Shown here: positions 2,579 to 24,124 of the stretch, piece after piece
How positions within the stretch are numbered: the stretch's first letter is position 1
How the letters are laid out: each line of letters starts with the position of its first letter
IMG/VR virus record: IMGVR_UViG_3300030339_000006
DNA length: 64,000 bases
Direction: 5' to 3' (one strand)
Source of the DNA: a virus
Translations under genes and position numbers: made by a program
The notes under the pieces: generated by a model
Databases searched by the model: none
Told to the model about the DNA's origin: nothing
Seen by the model: only the letters and a program-made list of their open reading frames with translations

Positions 2579-2593
2579 GTTTCCTCTCACTGG

Positions 2594-3250: not shown

Positions 3251-3261
3251 TCTCACCTCTG

Positions 3262-3281
3262 AAAACCCCTCCGAAGAGGGG
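3262..3281 (-). terminator. Rho-independent terminator
   Basis: Minus strand CCCCTC-TTCG-GAGGGG-TTTT. Confidence 0.65.
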
Positions 3282-3288
3282 CGTGGGA

Positions 3289-4032: not shown

Positions 4033-4033
4033 T

Positions 4034-5518: not shown

Positions 5519-5529
5519 TTGGGTTCCTT

Positions 5530-5551
5530 AAAAAGGTGCCCGAAGGCACCT
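5530..5551 (-). terminator. Rho-independent terminator
   Basis: Minus strand AGGTGCC-TTCG-GGCACCT-TTTT. Confidence 0.65.
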
Positions 5552-5556
5552 ACAGA

Positions 5557-6111: not shown

Positions 6112-6120
6112 GTAGGCCTC

Positions 6121-7041: not shown

Positions 7042-7685
7042 TAATCTTCCTTCAGGTCTTCTTCACTCGGGAACTGAATGTCATCCCCAGTGAACTGTTG
7101 CAGTGCGATATTGATGTCTTTCATAGCTTCATCAGTATCAGTCACCCATGTTTTGAGCAGACGGGCCGCTTCAACAGCCTGCTTCGTCCACTTCGCGGAT
7201 TCCTTGGACGCCTCAGAGGCGTTAGCGTTAAAGAACGCTTCCTTACTCTTGAAGTAACAATCCGAGAAGATACGGGTCAGACCCTCGACCGGCGAGACAC
7301 TGACTTCGTTACCAAAACGCCACTCGAGGAACTTCATGCCCTGAGTCAGGGCCCAAGTCTTCATCGTACGTTCGCTGGCTTCTTTGATGCTGTCAACCAT
7401 CGCCAAGCGTTGGAGTTTGGTCATCGCTTCCACGTCCCAGTATACCGTGCGGTAAATGTCCAGCACGCTCACCGGAACACCCAGGAAGGATGAGATCACC
7501 GCCAAGTCATTCGTGGCCAGTAGGCTAGACTCCACGTAAAGACGTTGTGTGCGATCCTTGTAGATTACCGTGGCTTCCGCAACCAGTTCGGCGAATTGGC
7601 CAGCCAGGAGCTGATCCACGATCGGATCAACCCCCTTGGTGCCTTTCGCGAGCAGTAGGCCGCGGTAGTTCGGTCCTTTAGACAT
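7041..7685 (-). CDS. Hypothetical protein (head operon)
   Basis: Coupled to neighbours by stop/start overlaps; alternative start 7724. Confidence 0.5.
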   Translation of the reverse strand: MSKGPNYRGLLLAKGTKGVDPIVDQLLAGQFAELVAEATVIYKDRTQRLYVESSLLATNDLAVISSFLGVPVSVLDIYRTVYWDVEAMTKLQRLAMVDSIKEASERTMKTWALTQGMKFLEWRFGNEVSVSPVEGLTRIFSDCYFKSKEAFFNANASEASKESAKWTKQAVEAARLLKTWVTDTDEAMKDINIALQQFTGDDIQFPSEEDLKED

Positions 7686-9580: not shown

Positions 9581-9588
9581 CTATTTTA
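9581..9588 (-). promoter_or_regulatory. Putative late promoter TAAAATAG
   Basis: CTATTTTA on + strand; same octamer upstream of other minus-strand genes (12865, 37458, 39379). Confidence 0.55.
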
Positions 9589-9604: not shown

Positions 9605-11014
9605 TTAGCTATTCATAGCGTCGAGGATTTCCTTGGTCAGGCTATCTTTGTTGGCTGCCGAGTGGTGCAGGTAGTCATCAATGCCTTGTCCACGAGAGAT
9701 CTTACCGAAGAGCTTGGGTTTGGTTGCGAGATATCTCATCACCCGTACTTTACGCTCTTCCTCAGGCAGGTCTGCGTGGGAACGGTAACGAATGCCACGA
9801 CCGATAACCTGGTTGATCTTCTCGTTGTTAAAGTGAGGCTCCATCCCTTGGAACGAACGGGTGCCCTTTAAATCCAAGCCTTCTGAGCCGGCTGACGACA
9901 GGAGGATCGCTTTGATCTTCCCTTCGTTGTAGTCACTGATAGCCTGCTTACGTTCCGAAGACGTGGTACTGCCGGTAAACATCGCAGCAGAAATCTTTTT
10001 CGCCACCAGTTGTCGGTGGGCCTCTTCCAGGCCGGAGCCCAGGTAGTTAGAGTAGATGATACCCTTGTGATTAGGATTATCCTTCATCATCGTCTCAAAG
10101 TCACTGACTATTCGATCAATCTTTGGCGCCGACGGTTTACGCGTGGTGTATTTAGCGTCGGTGTTACTGATCTGTCGAACGGCCTGAGAGAAGGCGTTCA
10201 GGTTCTGCTGCTCTTTCTTATCCACTGGAAGGTTCATACGGATCTTCAAGCGAAGAGGGAGGGGGATCGTGTCTTCTGCGTACTGGTAAGCCCGCAGCTG
10301 GTCCGGAGACATGTCAACGTGCACCATTTCGTCAGTACGGTCCGGGAAGTCCTGCTTCATTTCCTTCATGGCATCGAAGCGGTCCATGTACTCTTTACCC
10401 AGGCGACGCAGTTCCTTCTTGTTCTTCACAGACAGCTTATCACCGGGTTTCACCCCGAGAATACGCAGGAGTAGGCCTGGCTTGACTTTGTCATGCTGGA
10501 TGAAGGCCTGGTCGAACTTGTCTGGATCTTCCGGCATGACTGACTTGCCGGCCGTCGTGTTGATGACCTTGGCGATGTCAGAACGCTGGTTGTAGATCGG
10601 CGTACCGGTTAACAGCAGGCGTTGCTTGGCGGAACGAGCCAGATCGCGTACGGCGTCGGAGCGAAGCCCCGGGTTACGCACACGGTGGGCTTCATCGAGC
10701 ACCACCAAATGGTAGCCTTTGGCCTTGTAATCCTTCGCTTTTCTCTGAGCACCTTCGTAGGAATCGATGTCGATGTTCGAACGGATGTGCTTAGGGATGT
10801 TGTGCTTGTCCATTTCCTTCTGCATGTTGTCACGCAGCGGAGCCGGAACGATGAACAGGGCACGGGCCCCTGGATTCTTCTCAATGACACCGCGGGCGGA
10901 ATCGAGACTCTCGAGGGTCTTCCCTGACCCAAGAGAATGATAGGCCAGGACAGATTTGCCCGAGCCGATCTTGTCGGATATCCGCTGTTGGTGGTCCTTC
11001 AGCGTGTAATCCAT
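9605..11014 (-). CDS. SNF2/SWI2-family SF2 helicase/ATPase
   Basis: SLGSGKT, VLDEAH, LLLTGTPI.N, GSEGLDL, QVIGRGIR; start overlaps stop of RNAP beta'-C gene (TAATG). Confidence 0.85.
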   Translation of the reverse strand: MDYTLKDHQQRISDKIGSGKSVLAYHSLGSGKTLESLDSARGVIEKNPGARALFIVPAPLRDNMQKEMDKHNIPKHIRSNIDIDSYEGAQRKAKDYKAKGYHLVVLDEAHRVRNPGLRSDAVRDLARSAKQRLLLTGTPIYNQRSDIAKVINTTAGKSVMPEDPDKFDQAFIQHDKVKPGLLLRILGVKPGDKLSVKNKKELRRLGKEYMDRFDAMKEMKQDFPDRTDEMVHVDMSPDQLRAYQYAEDTIPLPLRLKIRMNLPVDKKEQQNLNAFSQAVRQISNTDAKYTTRKPSAPKIDRIVSDFETMMKDNPNHKGIIYSNYLGSGLEEAHRQLVAKKISAAMFTGSTTSSERKQAISDYNEGKIKAILLSSAGSEGLDLKGTRSFQGMEPHFNNEKINQVIGRGIRYRSHADLPEEERKVRVMRYLATKPKLFGKISRGQGIDDYLHHSAANKDSLTKEILDAMNS

Positions 11015-12834
11015 TAGTAACGACCTCCTTCGCCTTCACCGAACGCACCGCCGAGAATGTACGGGGCAATAGGGTCAGTGCTGCTTGATGGTGATTCCAT
11101 ACCTTCTGCTGCGGCCTCAGTCAGCGTCTTGCCGATCTGTTTGAACGCCAGGCGGGATAGCCAGTTGGTGTCTTTCAACTTCGCTGTCTTAATCCCCGGT
11201 ACCATTGGCTCTACTTCCAAGCCAGAACGAGACGTGTGAACCTCGTCGATACCGTGTTTGCTCAAATACGCCAGGTGGTTGCTGTCCAGGATTGTTCCCG
11301 GGGTCAACTCCAAGACTGGACGAGCCAGTTTCTGTCCGGTAGCACGCTCAATAGGCATGACCTGCGAGTCACGAGCCATTTCGTCGGCAATGTGGTTCAC
11401 GGTCACAACCTGGCCCGGAAGATACGCCGTAGTACCCGGATCCTTCACCTTCACGTATTTGACCAGATTCTTCGCGATCAGATCGAAGTGACGCGGGTCC
11501 AGTCCGCCGCCGTAGATTTCATACAGCTTGTTGGACATGTAGCGACGACCGTCACCGATGCCACGCAGGGCCACCAGCTCACGGGTGTTGATCGTACCGG
11601 TAGACAGAGCCTCACCGGTCTTCACTTTGTCGCCTTCCTTCACTGCCAGATCCTGGGAGTTCGGGATGAAGTACTCTTTGTCACCGACGTGCAGCGTGGT
11701 ATCCCCGAGAGTCGTGGTCTTGATCGTGTGAACAGAACCGTTACCCTCTGCGATGATCGCTTTGTCCTGGAACTTCTGTGGGTTGACCAAGAGGTTAGAC
11801 GTCAAGTCGTACGGGTTGATGGACTTACCGGATTTCGCGTTATGCTTAGTACCCAGAATCATCTGTGTCAACACTTCGGAGGCCGACTGAGCCGCCACGA
11901 CACCGACGTTCTCTCCGATATCCGGGATGTGACCGTTGGCATTCAGACCGTAACACTTCTTACACACGCCTTCTTTGGCCTGGCAGGTCAGCGTATTGCG
12001 GACTTTGATACTCTTCACGCCGTCGTGTTGCAACTGGCGGTAGTAAGCTTCGTCGATCAGGTGGTTTGTGCCGGCAGTGAAGTGGAAGATTACCTTCTTC
12101 TTATCCGTCGGATCCATCTTCTCGACCAGGCCATTCGTCGTGCCACAGTCGTCTTCCGTGATTACTTCGTGGTACAGGTTCGGAGTGATCGATTTGAACA
12201 TGTCGCCAGGCTTGGAGGTAGACAACTGAGCTCCCACGGTGTTACCGCGTCCCCAGTATGACATGGCCAAGTGTTCGGCGGGACTCAGACCTTCGGCGAA
12301 GGAGTGCATGATCGCCAGTGGGATCGGTGAGCCATCGATCTTCTTTGACTGAATCGGTGAGCTGGTAGCCTGTTGGAGCTGATCCGGGTTACCACGAGCA
12401 CCGGTCTGAGCCATCATAGCCGCCGTCGACTTGCGGGCCACCATGTAGTTCAGGTTCTGGTCGGTCAGCAAGCGTTGATACTTGGTTGACACGTCCAGCA
12501 GTTTTTCACGGCGTTCACGCTCGGAGAGACCCTTCTCGTCGTTCACGTGGTTAGTTGCCGCTTCGTATTCTTTGAGCATGGCATCACGTTCGTCTGAGTC
12601 GTTGTAGTAGTCAGAGAGTGGGGTGGAGTAGCCGTGATCGGTTGCTGTGTGGAAAAACAGGTGTGACAGATTCGAGATCGTGTCAGCTGCTTGATCTCCA
12701 CCGTGGGTAATGACGTTAGCAATCAAATCCTTAACGCCGTTCTTGTTCAGCACTGTGTGCGGGTCGAAGTGCTTCTGTGCTGCTTCCGGTAGCATGCTCT
12801 TAATCTTCAGAGCGCCGGGGGTAATGATTGTCAT
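11014..12834 (-). CDS. rpoC: DNA-directed RNA polymerase beta' C-terminal chain
   Basis: TGARGN, SFAEGL, bridge-helix region, EDDCGT, VRNTLTC..EGVCKKCYG Zn site, trigger loop GENVGVVAAQSASEVLTQMILGTKH, RHFDLI, WLSRLAF. Confidence 0.92.
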   Translation of the reverse strand: MTIITPGALKIKSMLPEAAQKHFDPHTVLNKNGVKDLIANVITHGGDQAADTISNLSHLFFHTATDHGYSTPLSDYYNDSDERDAMLKEYEAATNHVNDEKGLSERERREKLLDVSTKYQRLLTDQNLNYMVARKSTAAMMAQTGARGNPDQLQQATSSPIQSKKIDGSPIPLAIMHSFAEGLSPAEHLAMSYWGRGNTVGAQLSTSKPGDMFKSITPNLYHEVITEDDCGTTNGLVEKMDPTDKKKVIFHFTAGTNHLIDEAYYRQLQHDGVKSIKVRNTLTCQAKEGVCKKCYGLNANGHIPDIGENVGVVAAQSASEVLTQMILGTKHNAKSGKSINPYDLTSNLLVNPQKFQDKAIIAEGNGSVHTIKTTTLGDTTLHVGDKEYFIPNSQDLAVKEGDKVKTGEALSTGTINTRELVALRGIGDGRRYMSNKLYEIYGGGLDPRHFDLIAKNLVKYVKVKDPGTTAYLPGQVVTVNHIADEMARDSQVMPIERATGQKLARPVLELTPGTILDSNHLAYLSKHGIDEVHTSRSGLEVEPMVPGIKTAKLKDTNWLSRLAFKQIGKTLTEAAAEGMESPSSSTDPIAPYILGGAFGEGEGGRY

Positions 12835-12864
12835 GGAGACCTCCGTTTAGTTGATCAACTAGAC

Positions 12865-12883
12865 CTATTTTACAGGGTATAAG
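12865..12883. promoter_or_regulatory. Back-to-back promoters: TAAAATAG (-) and GGTATAAG (+)
   Basis: CTATTTTA-CAG-GGTATAAG in the 72 bp divergent gap between the rpoC-like gene and 12907. Confidence 0.65.
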
Positions 12884-12906
12884 TACTGTAGTGAATAGGA
12901 GAGTCT

Positions 12907-13170
12907 ATGTTCAAAATTCTTAAGAAATACTCTACCACAAGAGTAAGTTACAACGAACGGGCTACAGGTTGTGTAGACTACCTACCCGTTCAAGATCAGA
13001 TCTTCTTCGAAGATCACTACATAGGCGGAATACGCGTGTATCGAAGGATACTCTTCAGAGAAAGGATACCTGTGTACGCGTGGACCGCCAGTGCTGTTAT
13101 GGGCTTTACAGACTGGAAAACAGACTGCCCAGCAGACATTTGGAAACTTTGCACCGGGAAAGATCTATGA
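12907..13170 (+). CDS. Hypothetical protein
   Basis: AGGAG RBS; first gene after GGTATAAG. Confidence 0.6.
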   Translation: MFKILKKYSTTRVSYNERATGCVDYLPVQDQIFFEDHYIGGIRVYRRILFRERIPVYAWTASAVMGFTDWKTDCPADIWKLCTGKDL

Positions 13171-13508
13171 AAACCAAAACTGTACTTGCTTTCGATACAC
13201 CCTTCATCACGTTCAAAGAGGATAACACCGTTTGGGTTTCAGTTGAATCCCTCTCGAACTTCCTCGGCCTGGGTTACGCAGAACAGGTGTACAACCTGTC
13301 CGGCGATACATCCATGCGGGAACTGGGGTTGAAGACCACCACTACCCCTGTCACGAAAGTCATCAGTGATGAGGGCCGGCAGTATCTTTGCATTCGACTC
13401 GAGGATGTCTCATTGTTTGCGGCCACGGCCACACTCGATGATCTCGGGAAGATTGATAACCAAAGACACTGCCGGGATGACCTGCCGGGTCTCCTGGCAG
13501 TATCCTGA
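13167..13508 (+). CDS. Antirepressor-N/Bro-N-like DNA-binding protein
   Basis: MKTKTVLAFDTPFITFKEDNTVWVSVESLSNFLGLGYAEQ resembles P22_AR_N; ATGA overlap with upstream gene. Confidence 0.5.
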   Translation: MKTKTVLAFDTPFITFKEDNTVWVSVESLSNFLGLGYAEQVYNLSGDTSMRELGLKTTTTPVTKVISDEGRQYLCIRLEDVSLFAATATLDDLGKIDNQRHCRDDLPGLLAVS

Positions 13509-13529
13509 GGACCCTTACGGGTCCTTTTT
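13508..13529 (+). terminator. Rho-independent terminator
   Basis: AGGACCC-TTAC-GGGTCCT-TTTT. Confidence 0.75.
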
Positions 13530-13567
13530 AGCTGCTGTGACATCGAAAGTCAGGGTCCTGTTCCCAA

Positions 13568-13781
13568 AATGTTCCAAAGAAAACCCAGATAGGACAAGGG
13601 CTTAGACGATTCTGTGACATTGTTACATCGGAACGTCTCCAACCCACCCTTATTAGAGACATCTTACCCCTATACATACATTACTATGGATCTTTAAATA
13701 GGTATATATAGGATACTACCTACTCTATGGGGATAAAGGGGGTGTGTGTTTAGGGGTGTTGTTCCTGTAACGGTGTCACAG
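13568..13781. repeat. Non-coding dyad-symmetric element, copy 1 (copy 2 at 48811-49018)
   Basis: Identical 28, 47 and 20 nt blocks shared with copy 2; arms CTGTGACA..GTTACA..GGAAC / GTTCC.TGTAAC..TGTCACAG. Confidence 0.9.
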
Positions 13782-14400
13782 CCCGGTCACGATAGTACCC
13801 AATCATGTTACCTGCTGCGTTTCCTACCTTCGAGGCAAGATACGCGGTACCCAAAGATCCCCCGATGGCGAACAATGGGTTTGTCCCATTTGTCATCATA
13901 CGGGCAGCCAGAGGAACGACCGACGCGATACCCAGGGCAGAACCCATGTTTGAGTAACGTGACTGACGATCACTCATGATGTCCACGTGGGTCAGTGCTT
14001 CCGGGATCATATCCACAGAGTCAGCTGCAGCAATCGCTCCGTCTACTACTCGACGTCCGATTGCTCCCCCTACTATAGACCCGCCGATAGCGCCTGCAAC
14101 GCCCGCTGCGACCTTAGCACGCAGTGACCCTGGCATTGCTGCGGCTGCAAGGTAAGAACCCAGCAGAGAGCCTCCTATGCCACCTCCTGACTGGATTACG
14201 TCTTTGGCCACGTACCCCAGGTCATCGATCGGGCGATCCATCAGGGCCACCTTCTCGAGCGGTTTCTGACGGAGCAGAGCACGAATCTTCGCTTTGGCGT
14301 ATGACAGCGCCATTTTATGAGGACGAGGGTCAGTACTCGCCTTCAGCAGCACCTTGATTTCCGGGCTGCGGTATACTTCAGTTACGTTAGAATCCTCCAC
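13750..14400 (-). CDS. Glycine-zipper membrane/virion protein
   Basis: GTG start; LEKVA followed by two GxxxG-rich helical hairpins. Confidence 0.55.
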   Translation of the reverse strand: MEDSNVTEVYRSPEIKVLLKASTDPRPHKMALSYAKAKIRALLRQKPLEKVALMDRPIDDLGYVAKDVIQSGGGIGGSLLGSYLAAAAMPGSLRAKVAAGVAGAIGGSIVGGAIGRRVVDGAIAAADSVDMIPEALTHVDIMSDRQSRYSNMGSALGIASVVPLAARMMTNGTNPLFAIGGSLGTAYLASKVGNAAGNMIGYYRDRAVTPLQEQHP

Positions 14401-14545
14401 GTCTGGCTCCTAATTTCTTTGCACGACGGTACATACCGTTGATCGACATACGGGTGCCACGTAGGAGTCCGCGAAGAGCGATGAAGCTGCCCAGCCCGGC
14501 CCCGATCTTGATCCCCGTCTCCAGATAAGACTTTTGTTCATTCAT
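14387..14545 (-). CDS. Small basic protein with hydrophobic helix (52 aa)
   Basis: Not in track: MNEQKSYLETGIKIGAGLGSFIALRGLLRG...; GGAGG RBS; TAAAATAT motif upstream. Confidence 0.55.
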   Translation of the reverse strand: MNEQKSYLETGIKIGAGLGSFIALRGLLRGTRMSINGMYRRAKKLGARRGGF

Positions 14546-14565
14546 AGTGTTCCTCCATTCAGCTC

Positions 14566-14582
14566 ATATTTTAGGGTATAAG
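14566..14582. promoter_or_regulatory. Back-to-back promoters: TAAAATAT (-) and GGTATAAG (+)
   Basis: ATATTTTA-G-GGTATAAG-CAAG-GTGTAG in divergent gap. Confidence 0.6.
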
Positions 14583-14623
14583 CAAGGTGTAGTAGAAACC
14601 ATTGTACCCCAAAGGAGGTGCCT

Positions 14624-14836
14624 ATGAAATATCGCATTACAGAAAGGATTGCCGGGTTCAACTACGCGGCAGGACTTCTGGCGAGCTCACGTGCCCTAAG
14701 CGATGATGACCTTCGTCTCGCGGTAAATACCATGATCGAAAACGCTGAGATAGCCACAGAGAGCTACCAGCGGGGCGTCGAAGATGCCCTTATGCATTCC
14801 CATCCGTATCTTTCTAGAAGACTCGGCCACTACTGA
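14624..14836 (+). CDS. Hypothetical protein
   Basis: AAGGAGGT RBS. Confidence 0.6.
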   Translation: MKYRITERIAGFNYAAGLLASSRALSDDDLRLAVNTMIENAEIATESYQRGVEDALMHSHPYLSRRLGHY

Positions 14837-14894
14837 TCCCGCGAGGGACATTCTGAATGGTCTTCATTCACAATTTTCCTTAAAGGAGATTTCC

Positions 14895-15248
14895 ATGGAA
14901 ATCTTAAAAACCCCCATCACCTTCAACTTCTGTGGCCTCCTGTTGAAGTTCGTTATTGATCCATCTGGCCGTCGTCTGGTTGATTCCGCCAAGCTTTGGT
15001 CCGACCTGGAACTCTGGCAGCGTCCGGCTCCGGATTGCACTGAGTATCTGTATGAAGAAGATCGCGAGGGGATACCATCCTGGTCGGTCTCCCGGTTCAG
15101 TAACCTAGAGGATCTGAAGAAACGCCACGAGCAACTCTCCACGATCGCTCTGATGAAGGACAACAAAGGTTTCATCCAACTGGGCTTCCTGCTCGAACAT
15201 TACCCACAACTCCTAGCAAAGCTAGATAAGGACTTACAATGTCAATAG
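14895..15248 (+). CDS. Bro-N/antirepressor-N-like protein
   Basis: AAGGAG RBS; ITFNFCGLLLKFVIDPSGRRLVDSAKLWSDLEL. Confidence 0.5.
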   Translation: MEILKTPITFNFCGLLLKFVIDPSGRRLVDSAKLWSDLELWQRPAPDCTEYLYEEDREGIPSWSVSRFSNLEDLKKRHEQLSTIALMKDNKGFIQLGFLLEHYPQLLAKLDKDLQCQ

Positions 15249-15862
15249 AAACATTCAACTTCCACGGTGAATCAATCCGCTTCAACTTAGACACCATGCA
15301 GATCAGCGTTTCGGATATTCTCTCCGTCATCGCCAATGACGTAAGCCAATTTGCCCTTGAGTCTAAATTCTCCTATTGGGTAGGCCTGGATAAAGTCATG
15401 GATGTCATCTCCGAAGGTTCGGATGGTTGCGGTGAATGTGGGGTCTGCACGATCTGGCTGTTGGAATTCGTCCCGACGTTGGTCAAGTGGTTGACCTGGC
15501 AGCATAGCGCCCTCGACCCAATCACGATCAACGAAGACGAATACAGCAAAGGCTTCAAAGAGGTCTACTGGGCACAGAAAGACGCCAAACACACTACCGC
15601 GTATCTGCTCTCAGGTGTTTTCACAGATTTGTACTCCCCGTGGGACGATCGCTGTGAAGTGAAGGTGGGTATGGGATACATTCCGTTAGAGGGTGAATTC
15701 CAGTACCGCGTCGTTCACGTGGTCCGTGATGTTGATATCGTAGAGGATGTCCCGGGTGGCTTCCCGCTCCGCTCTACTCGCTCGGTTACCCTACGTCTGG
15801 GTGTCGAAACGATCATCAAAAGTGCGGATCTCGGCAGCTTGCTCCACACGCTGTCCCGTTAA
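15239..15862 (+). CDS. Bro-N-like N-terminal domain protein
   Basis: MSIETFNFHGESIRF...ISVSDILSVI. Confidence 0.5.
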   Translation: MSIETFNFHGESIRFNLDTMQISVSDILSVIANDVSQFALESKFSYWVGLDKVMDVISEGSDGCGECGVCTIWLLEFVPTLVKWLTWQHSALDPITINEDEYSKGFKEVYWAQKDAKHTTAYLLSGVFTDLYSPWDDRCEVKVGMGYIPLEGEFQYRVVHVVRDVDIVEDVPGGFPLRSTRSVTLRLGVETIIKSADLGSLLHTLSR

Positions 15863-15886
15863 AATCCGGGGTGGAGGTACCACCCT

Positions 15887-16222
15887 ATGATCGAAATTGT
15901 GTACTTGAACGGAACTCCGGTAAATACCATTAAGACTGACGCGATCTACGTCGATGTCGTGAAGTTCTGGAAGGACCTAAAGATCCGCGTGGATCTGGCA
16001 CCCCTTCCTCCTTTCACGGAAATCCTCACGAGCGAATCAGAGAAGAGCTTCGCACTGGGCCAGTACGTGACCCTTGAAGACTTCGTCCAAGCCGTTTCTA
16101 ACATGAACCCGATTGCCATCGATGCAGCTATTCAGCATGCGATTTCCGTCGGTCTCACGGAAGCGGTCACGACTTACTGGGCATCACTGCCGGAGTTCAC
16201 ACCTATCTACAAGCCCCGCTAA
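15887..16222 (+). CDS. Bro-N/antirepressor-N-like protein
   Basis: GGAGG RBS; VYLNGTPVNTIKTDAIYVDVVKFWKDLKI. Confidence 0.45.
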   Translation: MIEIVYLNGTPVNTIKTDAIYVDVVKFWKDLKIRVDLAPLPPFTEILTSESEKSFALGQYVTLEDFVQAVSNMNPIAIDAAIQHAISVGLTEAVTTYWASLPEFTPIYKPR

Positions 16223-16233
16223 GGGGCTTTTTT
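16211..16233 (+). terminator. Rho-independent terminator
   Basis: AAGCCCC-GCTAA-GGGGCTT-TTT. Confidence 0.6.
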
Positions 16234-16244
16234 CGGAAACTGCT

Positions 16245-16877
16245 ATGGATTTTTTCGGTTGTCCAATTGATATCACGGTAGAACGCGGGCAGGTACATAT
16301 CGCCAGCACATCCCTGACTGAAAACCTCATCCTCCCTAAACGATTGGACCGAATGATCCTCGAGACCGACAAGATCCCGTTGGATTTACTCCTTCCAATC
16401 CTCAACCAATTCTCTGATACGAACAAGCAGGGCATCTTCCGCCGCCATCTGATCGAGGCCATCGTGATTGACAGTACGTGGATGACGAAGAAACTCCAGA
16501 AGGTGTATCCTCGCGTCGTTCCCGTCGTCCCGGGGCTTAACGTAACCTGCTACAACGAGGAAGGCCTCTGGATTGACGCGATGGATCTGGAGTATGACTT
16601 AAATCCCAAAGCTCGCCCCGCCCGTATCCCCCGATTATCCATGCGTCCATTCGACATGATGTATCGCCCTCGCCTGGCTCATCTGGAGCAGATGGAACGC
16701 GTCCGCTACTTTATCCCACTGCGTAGCCTCGACGATTACCTGGCCGCCAGCCGCAATCTGGCCAACGACAAGAACGTCCGGGCGTGGAAAGGACGCATCG
16801 AATCTGCCCTCCTGGATTACTGGGAGAACCTGGCGGACCTATCCTCTATCGGCTTACCGGAGAAATACCGTGCTTAA
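16245..16877 (+). CDS. Bro-N/antirepressor-N-like protein (possibly two domains)
   Basis: MDFFGCPIDITVERGQVHIASTSLTENL and internal VPGLNVTCYNEEGLWIDAMDLEYDL. Confidence 0.45.
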   Translation: MDFFGCPIDITVERGQVHIASTSLTENLILPKRLDRMILETDKIPLDLLLPILNQFSDTNKQGIFRRHLIEAIVIDSTWMTKKLQKVYPRVVPVVPGLNVTCYNEEGLWIDAMDLEYDLNPKARPARIPRLSMRPFDMMYRPRLAHLEQMERVRYFIPLRSLDDYLAASRNLANDKNVRAWKGRIESALLDYWENLADLSSIGLPEKYRA

Positions 16878-17151
16878 AAACGTTGTCATTATCTTCGGGG
16901 TATCCCTCCCAATCATGGAGGATGGCCACCTGGTGTACGTCGACCCTGGTGAGCTTCTGAAGAAGCTGTCGATAGACCGCGAGCTGATCCCGTGCAATCG
17001 TCGAGTTGGCTGGTGGGATGGCTTCTGCCACATCTCTAAGGCCACGATGACTTCGGAGTACTTAGTGTATATGCTCAGGACTTTAAGGGGTTCACAGGAA
17101 GAGATCGAGAAGTACAACATCTACGCTGATGAGATTGAGCGACGGGTGTAA
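16870..17151 (+). CDS. Bro-N/antirepressor-N-like protein
   Basis: GTG start, GGAG RBS; VIIFGVSLPIMEDGHLVYVDPGELLKKLSI. Confidence 0.5.
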   Translation: MLKNVVIIFGVSLPIMEDGHLVYVDPGELLKKLSIDRELIPCNRRVGWWDGFCHISKATMTSEYLVYMLRTLRGSQEEIEKYNIYADEIERRV

Positions 17152-17182
17152 AAGAAAAGGGCCCCGTTAAGGGCCCTTTTTT
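17151..17182. terminator. Bidirectional terminator between convergent blocks
   Basis: AAAAGGGCCC-CGTTAA-GGGCCCTTTTTT. Confidence 0.75.
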
Positions 17183-17267
17183 AGGCAGGAAAATGAAATT
17201 TCAACAGCATTCACAACATTCAATAACATAAGGAGGACTTCCACTATAGCTAAGTCCTCCTGGACTG

Positions 17268-20200
17268 TCAACCCGTAATTCGAATCGGAGTGTCACTTTG
17301 TACGTGACCTGCTTCGAGAGCCGCCAGTGCTTCAGCTTCTGTCTTGAATTCCACGACTTTCTTATCCATGTTCGGCTTAGTCAGGTGAACTGAACCGAGG
17401 ATCGCTTCGTGGCCCGGTGCGAACATCGGGTTGCCGTAACCTTTACGAGCGTCGTGCAGGTTGCTCGAAGGCATCAACTTCTCCTTCGCTTCCCGTACGG
17501 CTTCCGGAGTCATCGGCACGAACATCGACATGGCGTCACCGTCGTAGTCGGCTGCGAACGCCGGTAGGTGGAGGATGTTCACCCCGATCGTCTTACCGTC
17601 CGTCGGCACTGCCTTCATCGCCATGATGTTGGTACGCATCAGGGTCGGTGCACGGTTCAGCATGACCGGAACGGTATCCACGATGTGGTTAAAGCTCGCC
17701 GTCGCTGCGTCGTTACGTCCTTCGTAGGCGTTCTTCGCTTCCGCCAGGTCATACCCTTTCTGGCTCAGGTCACGAATGATGTGCATCTTGTACATCGTCC
17801 AGAGCTGATCAGCGGGGATACGGGCCTCGTTGAAACCAATATCTGGCGCCGCGTAGATCGTACCACGACCGGAGAAGTCCTGTTTCTTCTTCAGGATCTT
17901 ATCCTGGAAGTAACCCGTCTTCGGTCCACCGGTACCTTCCAGCTGACGCATCAGGCCTTTGGTCCCCTTCTGCTTCGCTTGGAAGTCAATCGGGTCACCG
18001 CCGTCCATGATTGCTTTCGCCCCGTTGTACAGGTCACGACGCAGATCGACCATCCCTTCCATGTCTGGAGAGATCATGTCCATCCCGATTTCGTCATCCA
18101 GACGCTTCAAGCGGCCATTTACCAGCATGTGGTGTTTGTACAGCTCGTTGACGTCAGCGTAGCCCAGACGGTTACCCGAAATGGTATACGGACGCATGAC
18201 CGGAGGAATTACCGGCATGTGGTGCAGCACGAGTGCCTTCGATGGATCCGTAAAGCCCTGCTTGGCCAGACCGGCCAGGTACTTCATCTTCTTCACGATG
18301 GTGTCACGCTTGGTGGCAGACTTCTCGTCCATCACTTTGCCACGCAGGTGGGCCAGCTCGTCGTCGACGTGAATGTCTTTCAACATCGCTTCGATCGCGT
18401 GTCCGCCGACCAGTGCTTCCCCACCCTCTTCTGCCGCTGCTTTCTCCAGCGTGTTGGAAACGGTCAGCTGTTTCACCAGAGCATCGTCCTTGTGGGTATC
18501 GACCAGGTCGAACAGGCCTTTACCGCGACGAATCACCCCATACTTCCCGGAGATCAGGTTCGTCATGTGCTCTTTGCTCAGACCCAGCAGGGCACGAGCA
18601 GGATCTTCCATGACCGGGTTAACGATCGGTTCCATCAGCTTGTAGTGAGACCAGTTGTTACCTTCTGGACCACCGGTCACGTCCATATCGAACAGGCCGC
18701 CCTTCACTGGAGAGACGTTACGAGCCAAGATCATGTCCGGCTTGTGAATCTCACCGCTCGAGTTACCTAGCACTTCACGGTCGGTCATTGGGCCGGCCAC
18801 GAGGTTACCGTTACGCTCAGAGACGTTGATGCCTGAACCACGCAGGTAATCGAAGAACTTACGCGTGGCGAAAGTCGTCTTCGGCTGCGGCAGTGGCAGG
18901 CCACGCATGAACTTGTCCCAGTAATCGTGGGTGTCAGAGTGATCACCACCTTCAGACTTCACGGTACCGATCTCTTTCAAGTTAGCACGAGCGTTGGAAC
19001 CCAACAGGCCCAGGAACTCCATGTAACCCACGGCCTTAGCACCATCGTCACCACCCTTAGTAGGCTGGGCGTTGTTGTCGTAGCCACCAACTGAACGGGC
19101 CGAGTAGTTCGCATCGGTCGTCTTGTTCAGCTTCAGGAAGTACTGTGGCCCCGTCAGGACATTCGTACCGTACACGTGACCGGTTTTCGGATCGATAACG
19201 GTGTCGGTGTCAGACAGGCCGTGCTCTTTTAGCTTAGCCATCAAGTTCTTGACGGTGTTGCCTTCTTCGTAGACTTTGGTCTTGTACGGCTGCCCGGTCT
19301 TCTGAGCAATCTTACCGGCCGCAGCTTCGAAGATCTGACCCAGGTTGATACGGGACGTTACTGACGCTGGGTTCAGAATCAGGTCGAACGGCTTACCGGT
19401 AGTACCGCTGGTAGGCATTTCGTCGTCTTCGAGAACCGCTGAGACCACGCCTTTGTTCCCGTGGAAGCCAGTGACTTTATCGCCGATCTCCAGGTTACGT
19501 TCACAGCGAACCATGATGCGAATCTTCTTCCCGTCAACGCTGGTGTCGGTCACGGTACCTTTTTCTTTGTGGTCCCAGACTTCTGCAGCAGAACGGTACG
19601 GGTTCACCAGCGTCTTATGCAGACGGCCGAGCACCATGTCCGTTTCGGTCAGTTGACGCTGCTCGAGAACGGCGAAGACCGGGTCACCGTATTCCAGCAC
19701 GGCACCCTGCTTAGCGAAGCCACGGGAGTCCAGCTTGGAGAGCTGCTCTGCAGTGAACTTGCCGGCGAAGGCTGCTTTGTACTTGTTGACGTCCGCGATG
19801 GTGTCTTTACCCATCTCGTATTCCACTTTGTACGCGTGGTTGGACTGCAGCTTCTCCGTCGCAGAGCGAGACACGACGATACCATCTTCGTGGTTGAACC
19901 CTTTGAATGGCATGTACGCCGTTTCCAGGTTCTTACCGATCGCCAACTGGCCGTCTTTGGTGTAGTTGTTGTCCGTCAGTACCTGACCGGCTTCAACCTG
20001 AGCACCGACCGGGTGCAGGTTAGGTTCGTCATCGTGGAAGCCTTTCATGTTGAACGGCAGGTTCTGCACGAAGTCGACGGTGTGTTCTTTCCCGTCGTGA
20101 GCCTTGATCACCATCTGAGACGGTGTGGACTTCACTACGGTACCCGTCACCGGCGCCACGGTAGACACGATCTTACCGATCGCAGAAACGAAGGTCTCGC

Positions 20201-21848
20201 CGTTATCCGCAACGGTCTGCACCAGCGGAGTCTCACGGTTCGTCAGGGACAACGCCTGTGGGATCGCCTTGCCTGCCATGGTCAGACGGCCCGGGTGGTT
20301 GGTGTTCAGGAACGGCACGAGGTTAGTCGTGATCGTGTACATGTCCGTACCGGATGGAATCCAGTATTGAACCTGGCCGCGAGGCACGTTCTTGAACTCG
20401 CCGTGAACCTGAGCCTGGACGATTGGCTTACCGTTGTCCTTCTCACCCGGGAACCCGATGGTGTGCGTCATGATTTCGTTGGCAGACAGATAAACCTTCT
20501 TGCCTTGATTATCGACGGCACGAGCGTACATCCCACCTTCTTTGTCACGGTGAGCCGTGATGGTGAAACGCTGGTCCAGACCGGCAGTTGACGATTCTGG
20601 TGTACGGGACGGGTCAATGATACCGAGCTGAGAGGGGTGCACGTTACGGCTCTCCGTCGTGGCCTGGCGCTCAGAGGACATCCCGCCGTCACCGGCAGCA
20701 ATTAGGGTCACCTTACCGACGTTCTCGATAGACTCGACAGGGTTGGTCTCATCCGGCGTAGAGCTCAGCTGAGAACCGATGATGAAGTCCGAGTAAATCT
20801 TGTTGAACGGCTTGGCCGGGATCACTTCACGCAGGCTCGGGGCCGCGTCATTGATTCGGCTCAGGTTGTACTTGATGCGGTCAAAGGACTTCCCAACGGT
20901 CTGGTGCAGCTTGTTCGCTTCGAAACGACGACCGATGAAGTCCGGCAGGTTCTGAACACGCTTGAACTGCAGGGAGTCACGGTTATCTTCCGGACGCTTC
21001 TTCGAGTACACTTCGACGATGTTCTTCATCGCACGCAGCAGTGTCTCTGGCTCGATCCCACCGAAGGACTTCCCAAGGGTTGTCGCGGTAGTCTCTTTGT
21101 CCAGAGTCATTTCGGCCAGACGGCTCTTCAGCGCCACGCCCATTTCCTCAGTGGAAACACTGCGGGACTGTTCTTTGCGGTCAACCAAACGCTTGTACAG
21201 CTGGCCGAGGATCAGGTCTTCCTTACCCTTGGTGATCTTGCGGTTAGCCATCCACACGTCAGACGGAACGAAACGCATCACGTCGGCGTCGGACAGGCCA
21301 AAGCCCTTGGTCATCAACGGAGCGATCGGAATGTGCAAGTTCTTGCCGTTGATCTTGGAGAAGTAAATCTCCATGGTCTTCGAATCCAGGCCGAGAGAGA
21401 ACGTCGCACCCTTACCGGTGTTGATGTTCGTTTCCAGCTCGCCGTTGTTGGTCTTACGGGTGTAAACCCCGGGACGCAGCTGCATTAAGTTGGCGACGGA
21501 ATAGTTGTTCCCTTTGTACAGTAGGGTATGCTTGTTGGTGACGTGGAAGGTGTCAGCCAGGGCGAAGTTCTGCACGCGGTCAACCAGTTTCCCGGTCGCA
21601 CGGTCGTGCAGCATCAACGTACCGCGGATTGGGTACGTCAGAGAACGCGACTTCAAGATCGCGTCCTTCTCATCTGCCGTGGTGTAGTTCTTCTTGTCGA
21701 CATGCATGTCCTCTACCGACAGGGTGTACTTACCCGTCTCGATAGGGAACTGTTGCTTGATACCCTGGAGCATCGCGTCATCAGTGGCCGCGTTGATTGC
21801 GACCGGTGACGAGAAGATAGGCATCAATTCACTTGCTGTCTTAGGCAT
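17268..21848 (-). CDS. rpoB: DNA-directed RNA polymerase, beta fused to beta' N-terminal half
   Basis: beta motifs FPI, LRPGVY, VHPSQLGIIDPSRTPE, GFNHEDGI, IGDKVTGFHGNKGVVS, ILNPASVTSRINLGQI, YMEFL..TVKSE; then beta' motifs GEIHKP..GGLFD, PVIPPVMRP, KKQDFSGRG, LNRAPTL and catalytic AADYDGD (17535-17555). Confidence 0.95.
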   Translation of the reverse strand: MPKTASELMPIFSSPVAINAATDDAMLQGIKQQFPIETGKYTLSVEDMHVDKKNYTTADEKDAILKSRSLTYPIRGTLMLHDRATGKLVDRVQNFALADTFHVTNKHTLLYKGNNYSVANLMQLRPGVYTRKTNNGELETNINTGKGATFSLGLDSKTMEIYFSKINGKNLHIPIAPLMTKGFGLSDADVMRFVPSDVWMANRKITKGKEDLILGQLYKRLVDRKEQSRSVSTEEMGVALKSRLAEMTLDKETTATTLGKSFGGIEPETLLRAMKNIVEVYSKKRPEDNRDSLQFKRVQNLPDFIGRRFEANKLHQTVGKSFDRIKYNLSRINDAAPSLREVIPAKPFNKIYSDFIIGSQLSSTPDETNPVESIENVGKVTLIAAGDGGMSSERQATTESRNVHPSQLGIIDPSRTPESSTAGLDQRFTITAHRDKEGGMYARAVDNQGKKVYLSANEIMTHTIGFPGEKDNGKPIVQAQVHGEFKNVPRGQVQYWIPSGTDMYTITTNLVPFLNTNHPGRLTMAGKAIPQALSLTNRETPLVQTVADNGETFVSAIGKIVSTVAPVTGTVVKSTPSQMVIKAHDGKEHTVDFVQNLPFNMKGFHDDEPNLHPVGAQVEAGQVLTDNNYTKDGQLAIGKNLETAYMPFKGFNHEDGIVVSRSATEKLQSNHAYKVEYEMGKDTIADVNKYKAAFAGKFTAEQLSKLDSRGFAKQGAVLEYGDPVFAVLEQRQLTETDMVLGRLHKTLVNPYRSAAEVWDHKEKGTVTDTSVDGKKIRIMVRCERNLEIGDKVTGFHGNKGVVSAVLEDDEMPTSGTTGKPFDLILNPASVTSRINLGQIFEAAAGKIAQKTGQPYKTKVYEEGNTVKNLMAKLKEHGLSDTDTVIDPKTGHVYGTNVLTGPQYFLKLNKTTDANYSARSVGGYDNNAQPTKGGDDGAKAVGYMEFLGLLGSNARANLKEIGTVKSEGGDHSDTHDYWDKFMRGLPLPQPKTTFATRKFFDYLRGSGINVSERNGNLVAGPMTDREVLGNSSGEIHKPDMILARNVSPVKGGLFDMDVTGGPEGNNWSHYKLMEPIVNPVMEDPARALLGLSKEHMTNLISGKYGVIRRGKGLFDLVDTHKDDALVKQLTVSNTLEKAAAEEGGEALVGGHAIEAMLKDIHVDDELAHLRGKVMDEKSATKRDTIVKKMKYLAGLAKQGFTDPSKALVLHHMPVIPPVMRPYTISGNRLGYADVNELYKHHMLVNGRLKRLDDEIGMDMISPDMEGMVDLRRDLYNGAKAIMDGGDPIDFQAKQKGTKGLMRQLEGTGGPKTGYFQDKILKKKQDFSGRGTIYAAPDIGFNEARIPADQLWTMYKMHIIRDLSQKGYDLAEAKNAYEGRNDAATASFNHIVDTVPVMLNRAPTLMRTNIMAMKAVPTDGKTIGVNILHLPAFAADYDGDAMSMFVPMTPEAVREAKEKLMPSSNLHDARKGYGNPMFAPGHEAILGSVHLTKPNMDKKVVEFKTEAEALAALEAGHVQSDTPIRITG

Positions 21849-22116
21849 TGCGTTTCTCCATGTAGATTACAACGGCAGTATAGATCCCGGTGGCAGACGA
21901 GATGGAGTCTTTACGCTCCACCACAATGACACTGCCCTGCAGGCTTCGAGTCAGGAGAGACTCCATCTGCAGCGTGTCATCGTCTTCACCCCCGATAGTG
22001 AAGTACCCGATACGGTACTGCCACTCGTCCATGTTAATCCCTAACTGATCAACGGCCGGGGTAACCCCGGGCATTGCGTTCCCTTCATTACTTGGTTCCA
22101 GCGGATTCTTGGCCAT
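21841..22116 (-). CDS. Small protein between portal and RNAP
   Basis: 91 aa; AAGGAG RBS; overlaps both neighbours. Confidence 0.6.
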   Translation of the reverse strand: MAKNPLEPSNEGNAMPGVTPAVDQLGINMDEWQYRIGYFTIGGEDDDTLQMESLLTRSLQGSVIVVERKDSISSATGIYTAVVIYMEKRNA

Positions 22117-23800
22117 CTTGTTCTCCTTGTTGTGCCGGTGGCAGGTTTTCGATGATGTTCATAACGCTCTGATACATCGTCTGGTCTTTCGCCTGTAGAG
22201 CCAACAGAGCTTGCTGCTGAGCTTCTGGAGGAGTCTGCAGAATCTTCGCAGCTTCGTCATAGGCTTCTTTACGGTTGTCAGCGAATCCTGAGCTGTCTTT
22301 ATCAGACGCCAGGCCTTTGGATTTCGCGAAGATTGCTTTCTCGACGAGGTCTTTCGTTTCGACCTGGCTTTCAGCAGAGGAGACGGTATCGTTCATCATC
22401 TTCTCGAGTTCTTCATCATAATCCATTCCGAACGCTTCTAACAGGGTAGATGCAGACAAAATGTTAGATTTCCACATGTCCATCATGGACGCTTTCAGTG
22501 CTTCGTTATCCGTAAGTTTAAACGGCACGAGCTTCACTTCGGCAATCTCCAGAGACAGATATGACGCGATCTTCTCCATGATCCATTCGATCATATCCTT
22601 GAGCTGGCCCACGTAGTTGTTCATCGTGTTTTCCAGCAGACGCAGACCGATGGTTGAAGACGTCCAGTTAGTCGTACCAGACAGCAGTTCACGGGATACC
22701 CCCATGGACATCAGCTGTTGCTCTTCAGCGTACTGCAACTCTTGGGAGACCAACAGGGAACGTCCCTGGCCACCGATTTGCTGCGAACCGATCGGGATCG
22801 GAGAGATCAGCACGTGGTTCGGGTCCGACTTCATCTGACGGATTGTCCCCTTCATGTGCTTCGCGAAACCACGCAGTGACATCTGGGCCACCGGGTCGGC
22901 GTTCGCTGAGTTCTGCTGCGGGAAGATAACACGCAACGGAACCATGTGTTCTGCCGCCACTGCTTCGTTAGCCTTGCGGAGCATTGCCTGGTAGAACACC
23001 AGACCGTAGTGAGAGATCAACGGTGGGATGCCCAGCCCATCAATCATGTTACCCATCGAAATGGACTTCATGTGGTAGATGTTGGTGTCATCGAACAGGT
23101 AATCTTTACCAAAGCGTACGGCTTCAACCATAGACCACGGCACGGTAGACAGGAACAGTGGGTCGCCCATCATGATCTTCTTCTTCACGTCGCCAGGAAT
23201 CTGATAGTAGAACTCGGATTCTCCGGTCACCGGGTTGTGGTTCAGAGAGACGTTCTCTGGTTTCCACTTGATCAGGTTGATGCGAGACACGTCACGGGAC
23301 TTAGTGTCGACCAATTTGTAGTTCACGATGTTGTGACAGTTCGGGCATTCCCCGACGAATTGCCATTTCTTGAACGCTGCGAAGCCAGAACGCATGGCAG
23401 TCTTCACTTCGTAGGACGAGCGGCAGTTCGGGCAGTGCACGTGGCGGTCAATCGGGAAGTAGATCGACGTGTAAACGTTACCGAGCGTGTAGTAATCGAA
23501 ACCGGCGTCACAGAGCTTCTCTTTGAACTTGATGCTCTTGAAGATCTGCTTGTACGTCTCGATGGTTTTCTCGTTCTTGGAGTCCGTCAGGAACTCAGTG
23601 ATCGGGTAAGAGGAAAGCTTACGGATCACTTCGGTGGTAGTCGGCGCCTGGGTAGTGATGTAGCGGGACCACTTGATAATGTCATGAAAGCTACGCGGGA
23701 TGAACTGGTTCGCTTGCGTAAAGAAAGGACTCGGCAGTTGGCCGACCTCGTAGCTGTCATACATTCCACTCGGGGTGGGGTTAAGTCCGAACATTGACAT
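22088..23800 (-). CDS. Portal protein (probable) with CxxC..CxxC insertion
   Basis: 570 aa; DYYTLGNVY, IYHMK..GLGIPPL, MGVSRELL, ILSASTLLE..G.D.DEE portal-like patterns; two CPNC. Confidence 0.65.
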   Translation of the reverse strand: MSMFGLNPTPSGMYDSYEVGQLPSPFFTQANQFIPRSFHDIIKWSRYITTQAPTTTEVIRKLSSYPITEFLTDSKNEKTIETYKQIFKSIKFKEKLCDAGFDYYTLGNVYTSIYFPIDRHVHCPNCRSSYEVKTAMRSGFAAFKKWQFVGECPNCHNIVNYKLVDTKSRDVSRINLIKWKPENVSLNHNPVTGESEFYYQIPGDVKKKIMMGDPLFLSTVPWSMVEAVRFGKDYLFDDTNIYHMKSISMGNMIDGLGIPPLISHYGLVFYQAMLRKANEAVAAEHMVPLRVIFPQQNSANADPVAQMSLRGFAKHMKGTIRQMKSDPNHVLISPIPIGSQQIGGQGRSLLVSQELQYAEEQQLMSMGVSRELLSGTTNWTSSTIGLRLLENTMNNYVGQLKDMIEWIMEKIASYLSLEIAEVKLVPFKLTDNEALKASMMDMWKSNILSASTLLEAFGMDYDEELEKMMNDTVSSAESQVETKDLVEKAIFAKSKGLASDKDSSGFADNRKEAYDEAAKILQTPPEAQQQALLALQAKDQTMYQSVMNIIENLPPAQQGEQDGQESAGTK

Positions 23801-23859
23801 GATTAGTCCTCGTTAGTTGTTCTAAGATTTTAGACGATCCAATTCTCAGGAACCGGCCT

Positions 23860-23880
23860 GGTATAAGTATTGTGTAAACC
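23860..23880 (+). promoter_or_regulatory. Phage promoter GGTATAAG-N4-GTGTAAA
   Basis: GGTATAAGTATTGTGTAAACC before AGGAG RBS of 23897. Confidence 0.7.
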
Positions 23881-23896
23881 ACATAGGAGATAGTTT

Positions 23897-24124
23897 ATGT
23901 CATTACTGAAGAAATTGGAACCGTCGACTTCTAGTCAATTAACGACAATGGCCTTAGTTGGTACGGCTATTGTACTCGGTGCGGTGGCAATACGCCATAG
24001 CATTGAGATCAAAGAGTTAAAGAAGTGGACTGATCTTCAGACCAAATTGAACAACAGCCTGGTCCCCGTAGTTCTGGCTCAGGGTGGTCAAATCCGTAAC
24101 CTGCATGCGAAGGAAACTCTGTGA
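23897..24124 (+). CDS. Small single-TM membrane protein
   Basis: MALVGTAIVLGAVAI; AGGAG RBS. Confidence 0.65.
   Translation: MSLLKKLEPSTSSQLTTMALVGTAIVLGAVAIRHSIEIKELKKWTDLQTKLNNSLVPVVLAQGGQIRNLHAKETL

Follow-up and report, generated by a model that had tools for sequence, protein, structure and literature searches.

An RNA Polymerase within the Head-Gene Block

We analyzed a 64,000-nucleotide stretch of phage DNA (hereafter the window) from the IMG/VR record IMGVR_UViG_3300030339_000006 and found it to encode a bacterial-type multisubunit RNA polymerase (RNAP) whose genes lie within the block for head morphogenesis, flanked on one side by the portal gene and on the other by those for scaffold-like, protease, and capsid proteins. 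The window corresponds to bases 59480–123479, reverse-complemented, of a 176,021-bp viral record with completeness rated 100%; the source phage is uncultured, the sequence runs containing the window are peat metagenomes, and no RNA run was listed for positions 14500–24000. A search for near-identical DNA in a phage collection returned Salmonella phage Arash (OQ632216) as the sole match, at 77% over 66% of the query. An earlier note on this DNA had proposed that the polymerase is made late, packaged into the virion, trimmed by the prohead protease, and injected to read early promoters.

The phage has one such enzyme, consisting of a large chain that fuses β (approximately aa 1–1117) to the N-terminal part of β′ (β′N; approximately aa 1150–1526) and a small chain corresponding to the C-terminal part (β′C), an assignment based on the order of Pfam domains in both chains. 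The large chain matched Rpb2_6 with E 4e-54 and contains the motif GFHGNKG in its β part; the aspartate triad of β′ reads AADYDGD (aa 1432–1438; 17535–17555, minus strand), the bacterial consensus being NADFDGD. The bacterial-type β/β′ domain set is present with both double-psi β-barrel active-site motifs, and the best matches among solved structures (E 1e-64 to 1e-42; best 60 of 178) were bacterial β and β′. The whole genome contained one set of Rpb2_6 and Rpb1_2 matches, that is, a single RNAP. For the α subunit, no PF01000 match was found in the genome at E ≤ 1, a threshold at which 14 of 14 control genomes matched; the search did not extend to ω or other α domains.

Both RNAP genes share the minus strand with the genes for the major head protein, the protease-like protein, and the fibres (Table 1), and the gene calls thus bear out the earlier claim that they lie on the structural strand. 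The overlaps by which the large chain had been linked to the portal through a 91-aa open reading frame (ORF) were confirmed as well: the ORF overlaps the portal gene by 29 nt, with AAGGAG ahead of its ATG, and the large-chain gene by 8 nt (ATGCCTAA). Pfam and PHROG searches with this ORF gave no match, and it is present also in nearer relatives. A variable 4.4-kb insert separates the large-chain gene from that of β′C, and the β′C stop codon overlaps the start of an Snf2-family ATPase gene in the sequence TAATG. The 26 matches of the ATPase among solved structures were generic Snf2; RapA was not among them, and the candidate assignment as a RapA relative was rejected. The plus strand carries a second Snf2-related protein of 626 aa (26604–28484), followed by a DEAD/Helicase_C_2 helicase of 528 aa (28515–30101); there are therefore two Snf2 paralogues, one of which alone is linked to the RNAP.

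The arrangement is shared by relatives. We compared 30 related loci, namely Arash and 29 viral contigs (portal identity 41–78%). In all 30, the portal gene and the large-chain gene share a strand, with the portal immediately 5′, and in the 19 loci where β′C was found, it lay 3′ on the same strand, followed by a homologue of the gene at 7678–9555 and then by motif-rich head genes. Compact relatives such as L015 encode portal, RNAP, β′C, head-module genes, and protease in unbroken order. Given this conservation of order, we consider the RNAP genes to be part of the head block and not its chance neighbours. Inserted genes, including annotated homing endonucleases, split or separate the RNAP genes in the relatives L032 (10001–15492), L020, L023, and L034 and in Vibrio phages D181 and D148; in relatives with unfused genes, the distance from β to β′N is 0.15–2 kb.

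A Head-Protein Motif at the Subunit Joint

The earlier note had linked the polymerase to the head proteins through the short motif K-x-A. The motif was indeed enriched three- to fourfold in head-module proteins (12, 10, 8, and 6 occurrences vs. 3.1, 2.7, 2.7, and 1.6 expected), but the RNAP chains had it at chance level (large chain, 8 vs. 9.4 expected; β′C, 2 vs. 3.6), and K-x-A alone was therefore ruled out as evidence for RNAP processing. The fuller form of the head-module motif is [LMIVF]-x-K-x-A, mostly followed by A, S, E, or G. We counted 39 sites of this hydrophobic-x-K-x-A motif in eight adjacent head-module proteins (2057–9555), where shuffles of their own composition gave an expectation of 0.3–0.8 sites per protein. 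Control motifs in the same eight proteins were much rarer: 7 sites for the reversed motif, 4 with K changed to R, 1 with A changed to G, 2 with A changed to S, and 10 with shifted spacing. In the scaffold-like proteins, the motif recurs every 20–40 residues. Among 12 distant related loci examined, the enrichment recurred in the head-module ORFs of six, the remaining six ending before the head genes.

One of the eight genes encodes the prohead-protease-like protein, of which more than 1,200 relatives were found. Its fold matches were weak, with Varicella-zoster virus (VZV) protease at Z 4.8 and T4 gp21 (5jbl) at Z 4.1 over the conserved N-terminal domain; none of the 48,161 chains searched reached Z ≥ 5 with the full-length model, which was itself of low confidence (pLDDT 57). 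Motif sites flank the putative catalytic domain (aa 33–215), one at aa 28 and the other at aa 216. When 22 relatives (44–76% identity) were aligned, both flanking sites were kept in all 22, the site at aa 386 in 21, and that at aa 472 in 19, with the x positions variable. Invariant bracketing sites with free x positions form a pattern that would be expected of self-processing. Outside the window, the 'early' strand encodes a 552-aa G/A/K-rich, Cys-free protein (C1:29448–31106, minus) with 9 motif sites vs. 3.1 expected; its N terminus matches Arash gp97c, an abundant protein in the Arash particle data (24 unique peptides).

The large chain begins with MPKTAS and contains LEKAAA (aa 1134–1139), as the earlier note had observed; the latter does not lie in a variable loop of β′, as had been thought, but in the joint between β and β′N. 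These are its two hydrophobic-x-K-x-A sites (M1-P-K-T-A and L1134-E-K-A-A). Because a total of about 2.3 is expected by chance, the case for the joint motif rests on its position and conservation. For these we used the 74 relatives of the junction region found in the database, 26 of which form a linker-bearing clade (37–100% identity there). The N-terminal M-P-K-x-A was kept in 11 of the 26, and two nearer relatives read KSP and KDP; MPKTAS is thus unsupported as an N-terminal processing site. The joint motif, on the other hand, was kept in the same alignment column in 25 of the 26 fused relatives despite varying linker length and residues, the lone exception reading LEKEE. In seven fused relatives, it is the sole such site in approximately 1,500 aa, and among cultured relatives, the joint reads FSKQA in Vibrio phage D69 and VMHKEA in Arash. 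The residue following the alanine had a similar distribution at the joints (A8 S8 E6 D3) and at the head sites (A8 S8 E7 G6). In a model of the junction region (aa 1000–1300; mean pLDDT 87), the only low-confidence coil was aa 1130–1145, with the minimum on K-A-A. The polymerase thus carries a short motif with the consensus of the head sites, LEKAA, in a joint predicted to be disordered and exposed.

The fused form is not universal. Distant relatives encode β and β′N as separate genes, split at the point of the joint, and the separate β′N opens with M-S-E-L-L-V-G-G-H-A or a similar sequence, close to the point at which β′N would begin if the fusion were cut. As far as the ends of the proteins were printed, K-x-A was absent from the β C termini of 14 loci with their own stop codon and from 10 β′N N termini. 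One locus, L030, had appeared as a fused relative lacking the motif; an in-frame stop between β and β′N means that it is not fused, and it was set aside. Taken with the conservation at fused joints, these patterns make it reasonably probable, in our judgment, that the head protease cuts the RNAP at the β/β′N joint. The trimming that the earlier note had placed at the N terminus and in a loop finds no support at either site, and the evidence points to the joint instead.

The cysteine content of the proteins provides a further, weaker line of evidence. The large chain has 1 Cys where 12.6 are expected, and its 26 relatives have 0–3; the single-Cys chain of 1,526 aa is without zinc-ribbon cysteines. 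The Snf2 ATPase and a sigma-like protein of 234 aa (see below) have none, and a second sigma-like protein, of 283 aa, has three. Among proteins of 200 aa or more, those free of Cys also include the capsid protein and several large products of the structural strand, which is Cys-poor overall (0.48% vs. 1.09%). The cysteines of β′C are at aa 230, 284, 291, and 294, and their spacing, C..C-x6-C-x2-C, resembles that of the second zinc site of bacterial β′.

Table 1. Genes and sequence features of the RNAP region and related parts of the window
Feature	Position	Strand	Basis or remarks
Portal-like protein, 570 aa	22088–23800	minus	PHROG portal family, E 1.6e-7
91-aa ORF	21841–22116	minus	Overlaps portal and RNAP large chain
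RNAP large chain, β + β′N fusion, 1526 aa	17268–21848	minus	Pfam Rpb2_3, Rpb2_6, Rpb1_1, Rpb1_2
L-E-K-A-A, aa 1134–1138, candidate prohead-protease cut site	18435–18449	minus	Conserved in fused relatives; joint predicted to be disordered
RNAP small chain, β′C, 606 aa	11014–12834	minus	Pfam Rpb1_5 (E 1.3e-14), Rpb1_4
Snf2-family ATPase, 469 aa	9605–11014	minus	Pfam SNF2-rel_dom, Helicase_C
Eight motif-rich head-module genes	7678–9555, 7041–7685, 6121–7041, 5557–6111, 4034–5518, 3289–4032, 2594–3250, 2057–2578	minus	
Prohead-protease-like protein, 494 aa	4034–5518	minus	PHROG head maturation protease, E 6e-6
Major head protein, 307 aa	621–1544	minus	PHROG major head protein, E 4.7e-11
Sigma-70-family protein, 283 aa, regions 2–3	30348–31199	minus	PF04542, E 7e-12; aligns with SigA/RpoD regions 2–3
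TAAAAT box gtcTAAAATctt, late-type, promoter-like	23827–23832	minus	26 nt upstream of portal ATG
GGTATAAG box of divergent gene	23860–23867	plus	Second phage-specific promoter-like class
TAAAATAG box upstream of β′C	12865–12872	minus	32 nt upstream; abuts divergent GGTATAAG box
TAAAATAG box upstream of head-module gene 7678–9555	9581–9588	minus	
TAAAATAG box upstream of fibre gene	37458–37465	minus	
TAAAATAG box upstream of first gene of fibre block	39379–39386	minus	

Promoter-Like Boxes and Sigma-Like Proteins

The sequence TAAAATAG occurs four times in the window where 0.68 copies are expected, a count reached in 0 of 100 shuffles. All four copies are on the minus strand, 23–66 nt upstream of genes, and precede β′C, one head gene, and two fibre-module genes; the motif that the small chain had been said to share with head and fibre genes was therefore recovered. 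Its core, TAAAAT (often CTAAAAT(A/C)), also heads the operon of the portal, the 91-aa ORF, and the RNAP large chain. The genome has 52 TAAAAT sites, of which 21 are at most 60 nt ahead of a start codon on their own strand (about 4% expected), and these upstream sites mark portal, β′C, head-module, and fibre genes. Among the related loci listed, 26 of 28 have TAAAAT in the 130 nt preceding the portal gene, and 15 of 19 have it upstream of β′C. Neither RNAP operon was found to be preceded by any other promoter-like box. The common box, together with the position of the portal gene 5′ of the large chain at every locus, lends inferential support to late expression alongside the virion genes. In the distant relatives L016, L019, L024, L026, L031, and L034, TAAAAT is located 3–8 nt before the ATG of β′C and portal with no visible Shine–Dalgarno sequence, and the mRNAs look leaderless.

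A second phage-specific class has the form GGTATAA[GCT], often extended to GGTATAAGTAAGGTGTAAAC. We found 42 copies in the genome, 41 of them on the nonstructural strand and 38 intergenic, and the reverse complement is also kept in relatives. Both box classes are without a –35 element. Copies of GGTATAAG and TAAAAT(A/C) occur back to back on opposite strands, 1–30 bp apart, at 12865–12890, 14573–14590, 23827–23867, and 39379–39402, so that 'early-strand' and 'structural-strand' units diverge from a single short control region. The lone structural-strand GGTATAAG lies outside the window (C1:161719–161726, plus), a few nucleotides before an ATG, and is kept in Arash; it sits between a cell-wall-hydrolase-like gene and a gene pair encoding a gp9-like protein and the 234-aa sigma-like protein (sigma-234).

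The phage encodes two sigma-like proteins. In addition to the 283-aa sigma-70-family protein (sigma-283; Table 1), the 234-aa protein, encoded outside the window and orthologous to Arash gp10, matched region 2 with 18.2 bits, below the cut-off. No PF04545 match for region 4 was found in the genome at E ≤ 1, with 14 of 14 controls matching, a result that fits the promoter-like boxes without a –35 element. Upstream of the sigma-283 gene (31205–31260, minus), there is a sigma-70-like promoter, TTGACT-17-TACTAT, both hexamers of which are kept in Arash (L037 20770–20835) with a diverged spacer; the annotated start of the Arash sigma gp196 is apparently 177 nt too far upstream. Sigma-70-like promoter matches were not enriched overall (22 vs. 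15.4 ± 4.2; 13 of the 22 intergenic). One that is near consensus, TTGACA-17-TATAGT (11 of 12 positions), is located at 17243–17271 on the minus strand, directly after the large-chain stop, and is directed antisense into a plus-strand gene island at 14895–17151.

The Particle Proteome of Phage Arash

Arash resembles the window phage in gene order and in having a two-chain RNAP, with identities of 80% for the large chain, 78% for the portal, and 74% for β′C; it differs in being cultured, the window phage being an uncultured phage of 176 kb from peat metagenomes. The following figures come from the published Arash report (PMC10585845). Particles from a single 0–45% sucrose gradient yielded 116 of 252 proteins, among which gp206, the RNAP large chain, was the most detected (128 unique peptides, 3,516 spectra). 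Unique peptides numbered 40 for gp216 (β′C), 38 for gp217 (Snf2), 24 for the sigma gp10, and 32 for gp204 (portal), and the RNAP chains rank 1st and 6th of the 116 by this measure, in what was an impure preparation. The proteins annotated as major capsid protein (gp226) and portal (gp204) are orthologues of the window genes. The sigma gp196 and the orthologue of the 91-aa ORF, gp205, are not in the particle list.

To account for protein length, we computed peptide densities for 33 selected entries of the 116. Expressed as unique peptides per 100 aa, the two RNAP chains reached 8.4 and 6.6, Snf2 8.1, and gp10 10.3, compared with 9.8 for the capsid, 5.5 for the portal, and 6.0 for the major tail protein. 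Among 10 enzymes of DNA and nucleotide metabolism, seven had densities of 0.2–1.4, two of 2.5–2.9, and a 150-aa 'RNA ligase' of 9.3. The authors of the report name early transcription or carry-over as possible reasons for the presence of RNAP, helicase, and gp10 in particles.

Discussion

We propose the following scheme. The RNAP would be made late alongside the virion proteins and built into the prohead, where a T4 gp21-like head protease would cut the fusion at the conserved hydrophobic-x-K-x-A in the disordered joint, leaving the two parts as separate chains, as in the more distant relatives with a gene for each. The polymerase would then travel in the mature particle, probably accompanied by the Snf2 ATPase and sigma-234, and be delivered with the DNA, so that phage-specific promoters could be read before new polymerase exists. 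Packaging is the step in which we place the most confidence and regard as likely; the earlier proposal gains indirect support here from the particle proteomics of Arash, whose large chain is 80% identical, and from the protease-type motif conserved at the joint. For the whole chain of events, from late synthesis and prohead loading through the joint cut to carriage and delivery with the DNA, we lean moderately towards its being correct. Late timing, packaging in the window phage itself, cleavage, injection, and early function are all steps that we infer.

Several observations weigh against this scheme. The phage is known from its genes alone, and reading hydrophobic-x-K-x-A as a cleavage site, as opposed to a docking signal, draws on the analogy with T4 and phiKZ-type phages. 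The protease is weakly assigned, both by the PHROG match (E 6e-6) and by the modelled fold (Z 4.1–4.8 with pLDDT 57); the motif total of the large chain, 2 vs. about 2.3, does not exceed chance; and β′C is not depleted in cysteine (4 vs. 5.0 expected). In PMC10585845, the Arash particle list includes a reductase, a ligase, and a primase, and gp206 is reported with 100% coverage, a figure compatible with a cut joint as well as an intact one. An abundant DNA-bound late transcription complex could also co-sediment with Arash particles. Finally, the conserved sigma-70-like promoter before the sigma-283 gene suggests that host RNAP is probably used for some early genes and that an injected enzyme would not be strictly required, and the structural-strand GGTATAAG before the sigma-234 pair fits a cascade running entirely on the host core enzyme.

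The strongest alternative, which we consider unlikely, is that the RNAP is made late but not packaged. Host RNAP and the two phage sigmas would then run early and middle transcription and switch on the TAAAAT genes, after which the phage RNAP would take over or boost late transcription, and the particle signal in Arash would be carry-over. In its favour, the genome has sigma-70-like promoters, of which the one before the sigma-283 gene is conserved; the GGTATAAG before the sigma-234 pair fits a succession from host sigma to sigma-283 to sigma-234; and many nonstructural enzymes appear in the Arash preparation. Nonpackaging, however, leaves unexplained why a head-protein motif is found at 25 of 26 fused joints and is absent in unfused relatives, and why the RNAP lies between the portal and the scaffold and protease genes in 30 of 30 loci. 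Nor does it account for the peptide densities in Arash, where RNAP, Snf2, and gp10 are at approximately the level of capsid and portal, while 7 of the 10 tabulated enzymes are 5–40 times lower.

A different possibility, to which we assign a low probability, is that the RNAP is packaged with its joint uncut, the motif serving to dock or target the enzyme to the scaffold or the inner capsid surface. The fusion would then function without being cut, like the natural β–β′ fusions of some bacteria. The motif is common to the scaffold-like proteins, and the full coverage of gp206 in PMC10585845 is compatible with an intact chain. Yet the same motif brackets the catalytic domain of the protease with fixed positions and free x, the pattern of self-processing; its spacing of 20–40 residues in the scaffold-like proteins resembles that of the core cut sites of T4 and phiKZ-type phages (PMC10052503); and the site in the RNAP coincides exactly with the gene boundary of relatives. 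That TAAAAT is not late-specific, being for instance a weak –10 element read by host sigma-70 holoenzyme during the whole infection, and that the RNAP is an early-made, nonvirion enzyme of T7 type is very improbable: TAAAAT is one position from TATAAT and, before β′C, is paired with TTCACT at a 17-nt spacing (9 of 12 positions, one scan match), but the box is kept across relatives presumably with different hosts, most sites lack a –35 element or TG extension, the genes marked are those of portal, head, and fibres, and sigma-70-like matches do not exceed chance.

Returning to the packaged and cleaved polymerase, a broader extension of it is that in a phage of under 200 kb a single RNAP, cycling via the virion, runs the whole transcription programme: made late as the fusion, activated by the protease, injected with Snf2 and a sigma lacking region 4, and timed by sigma swaps, where phiKZ exchanges polymerases. 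We regard this extension as tentative and rather doubtful.

Comparison with known systems places the enzyme between several of them. T4 uses the host core enzyme throughout, having no RNAP of its own, and its late transcription pairs gp55 with the late promoter TATAAATA. The window phage resembles T4 in combining a short, A/T-rich, –10-like box that lacks a –35 element with sigma-like proteins without detectable region 4, and its scaffold-like proteins are dense in candidate sites, with the protease-like domain giving a weak fold match to T4 gp21 (5jbl, Z 4.1); it differs in the late box, here CTAAAAT(A/C), and in the cleavage motif. The protease motifs of phiKZ and T4 are of glutamate type, unlike the K-x-A of the window. 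Packaged RNAPs are known from N4, crAss-like, phiKZ-like, and P23-45 phages; to our knowledge, none of these is a bacterial-type β/β′ enzyme working with sigma-like factors. The virion RNAP of poxviruses and its companion NPH-I offer a further parallel, as a packaged multisubunit RNAP with an Snf2-type ATPase. This is an analogy and not kinship, poxviruses being eukaryotic viruses with an unrelated virion. The window Snf2 matches NPH-I weakly in sequence (6rfl_Y, E 1.9e-4), over only about 80 residues of the common helicase fold.

The nearest functional parallel is with the phiKZ-like jumbo phages (phiKZ, SPN3US, AR9), whose heads carry a multisubunit RNAP with ejection proteins. According to PMC10052503 and PMC7824862, a protease of the T4 gp21 type, with a short motif, matures their head proteins, as proposed for the window phage, and according to PMC7824862, an Snf2-type helicase gene adjoins the gene for the C-terminal part of β′, as it does in the window. 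The latter source gives these phages two RNAP sets, virion and nonvirion, and no sigma, whereas in the window phage a single set is accompanied by two sigma-like proteins. The window RNAP is, moreover, closer in sequence to bacterial β/β′ than the phiKZ-like enzymes are, and the genome is smaller than 200 kb. The window RNAP would work like a phiKZ-type virion RNAP but is not a member of that family. Another group, mReC (Weinheimer and Aylward 2020, PMC7481178), comprises uncultured tailed phages that encode bacterial-like β and β′, as here; their capsids match the T4 gp23 family, unlike the 307-aa capsid protein of the window, which falls in a different PHROG. The terms 'virion', 'packaged', and 'sigma' were absent in a search of PMC7481178.

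A packaged RNAP has already been raised in print for Arash, and the present analysis adds the joint site, together with its tie to whether the genes are fused or separate. In the parts of PMC10585845 consulted, neither the fusion joint nor the protease motif is discussed, nor are the promoter classes or the logic of a single RNAP, and in the full-text literature, subscription journals excluded, we found neither the joint motif nor, beyond Arash, a packaged sigma-dependent phage RNAP of bacterial type. A survey of jumbo phages (PMC7824862) presents phages encoding their own RNAP and phages encoding sigma factors as following opposite strategies; the window lineage combines an RNAP of its own with sigma-like factors.

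The relatives of this phage are common in metagenomes, with 29 viral loci and more than 1,200 relatives of the protease-like protein, and the cultured Arash makes the question of packaging and cleavage directly testable. Should the head protease indeed cut the joint, a capsid protease would be processing an enzyme at the boundary between its subunits, packaging would have a simple, testable marker readable from sequence alone, and the coexistence of fused and unfused forms within one family would be explained. If, further, a single RNAP cycles via the virion, the maturation of the capsid would double as the activation of the transcription machine.

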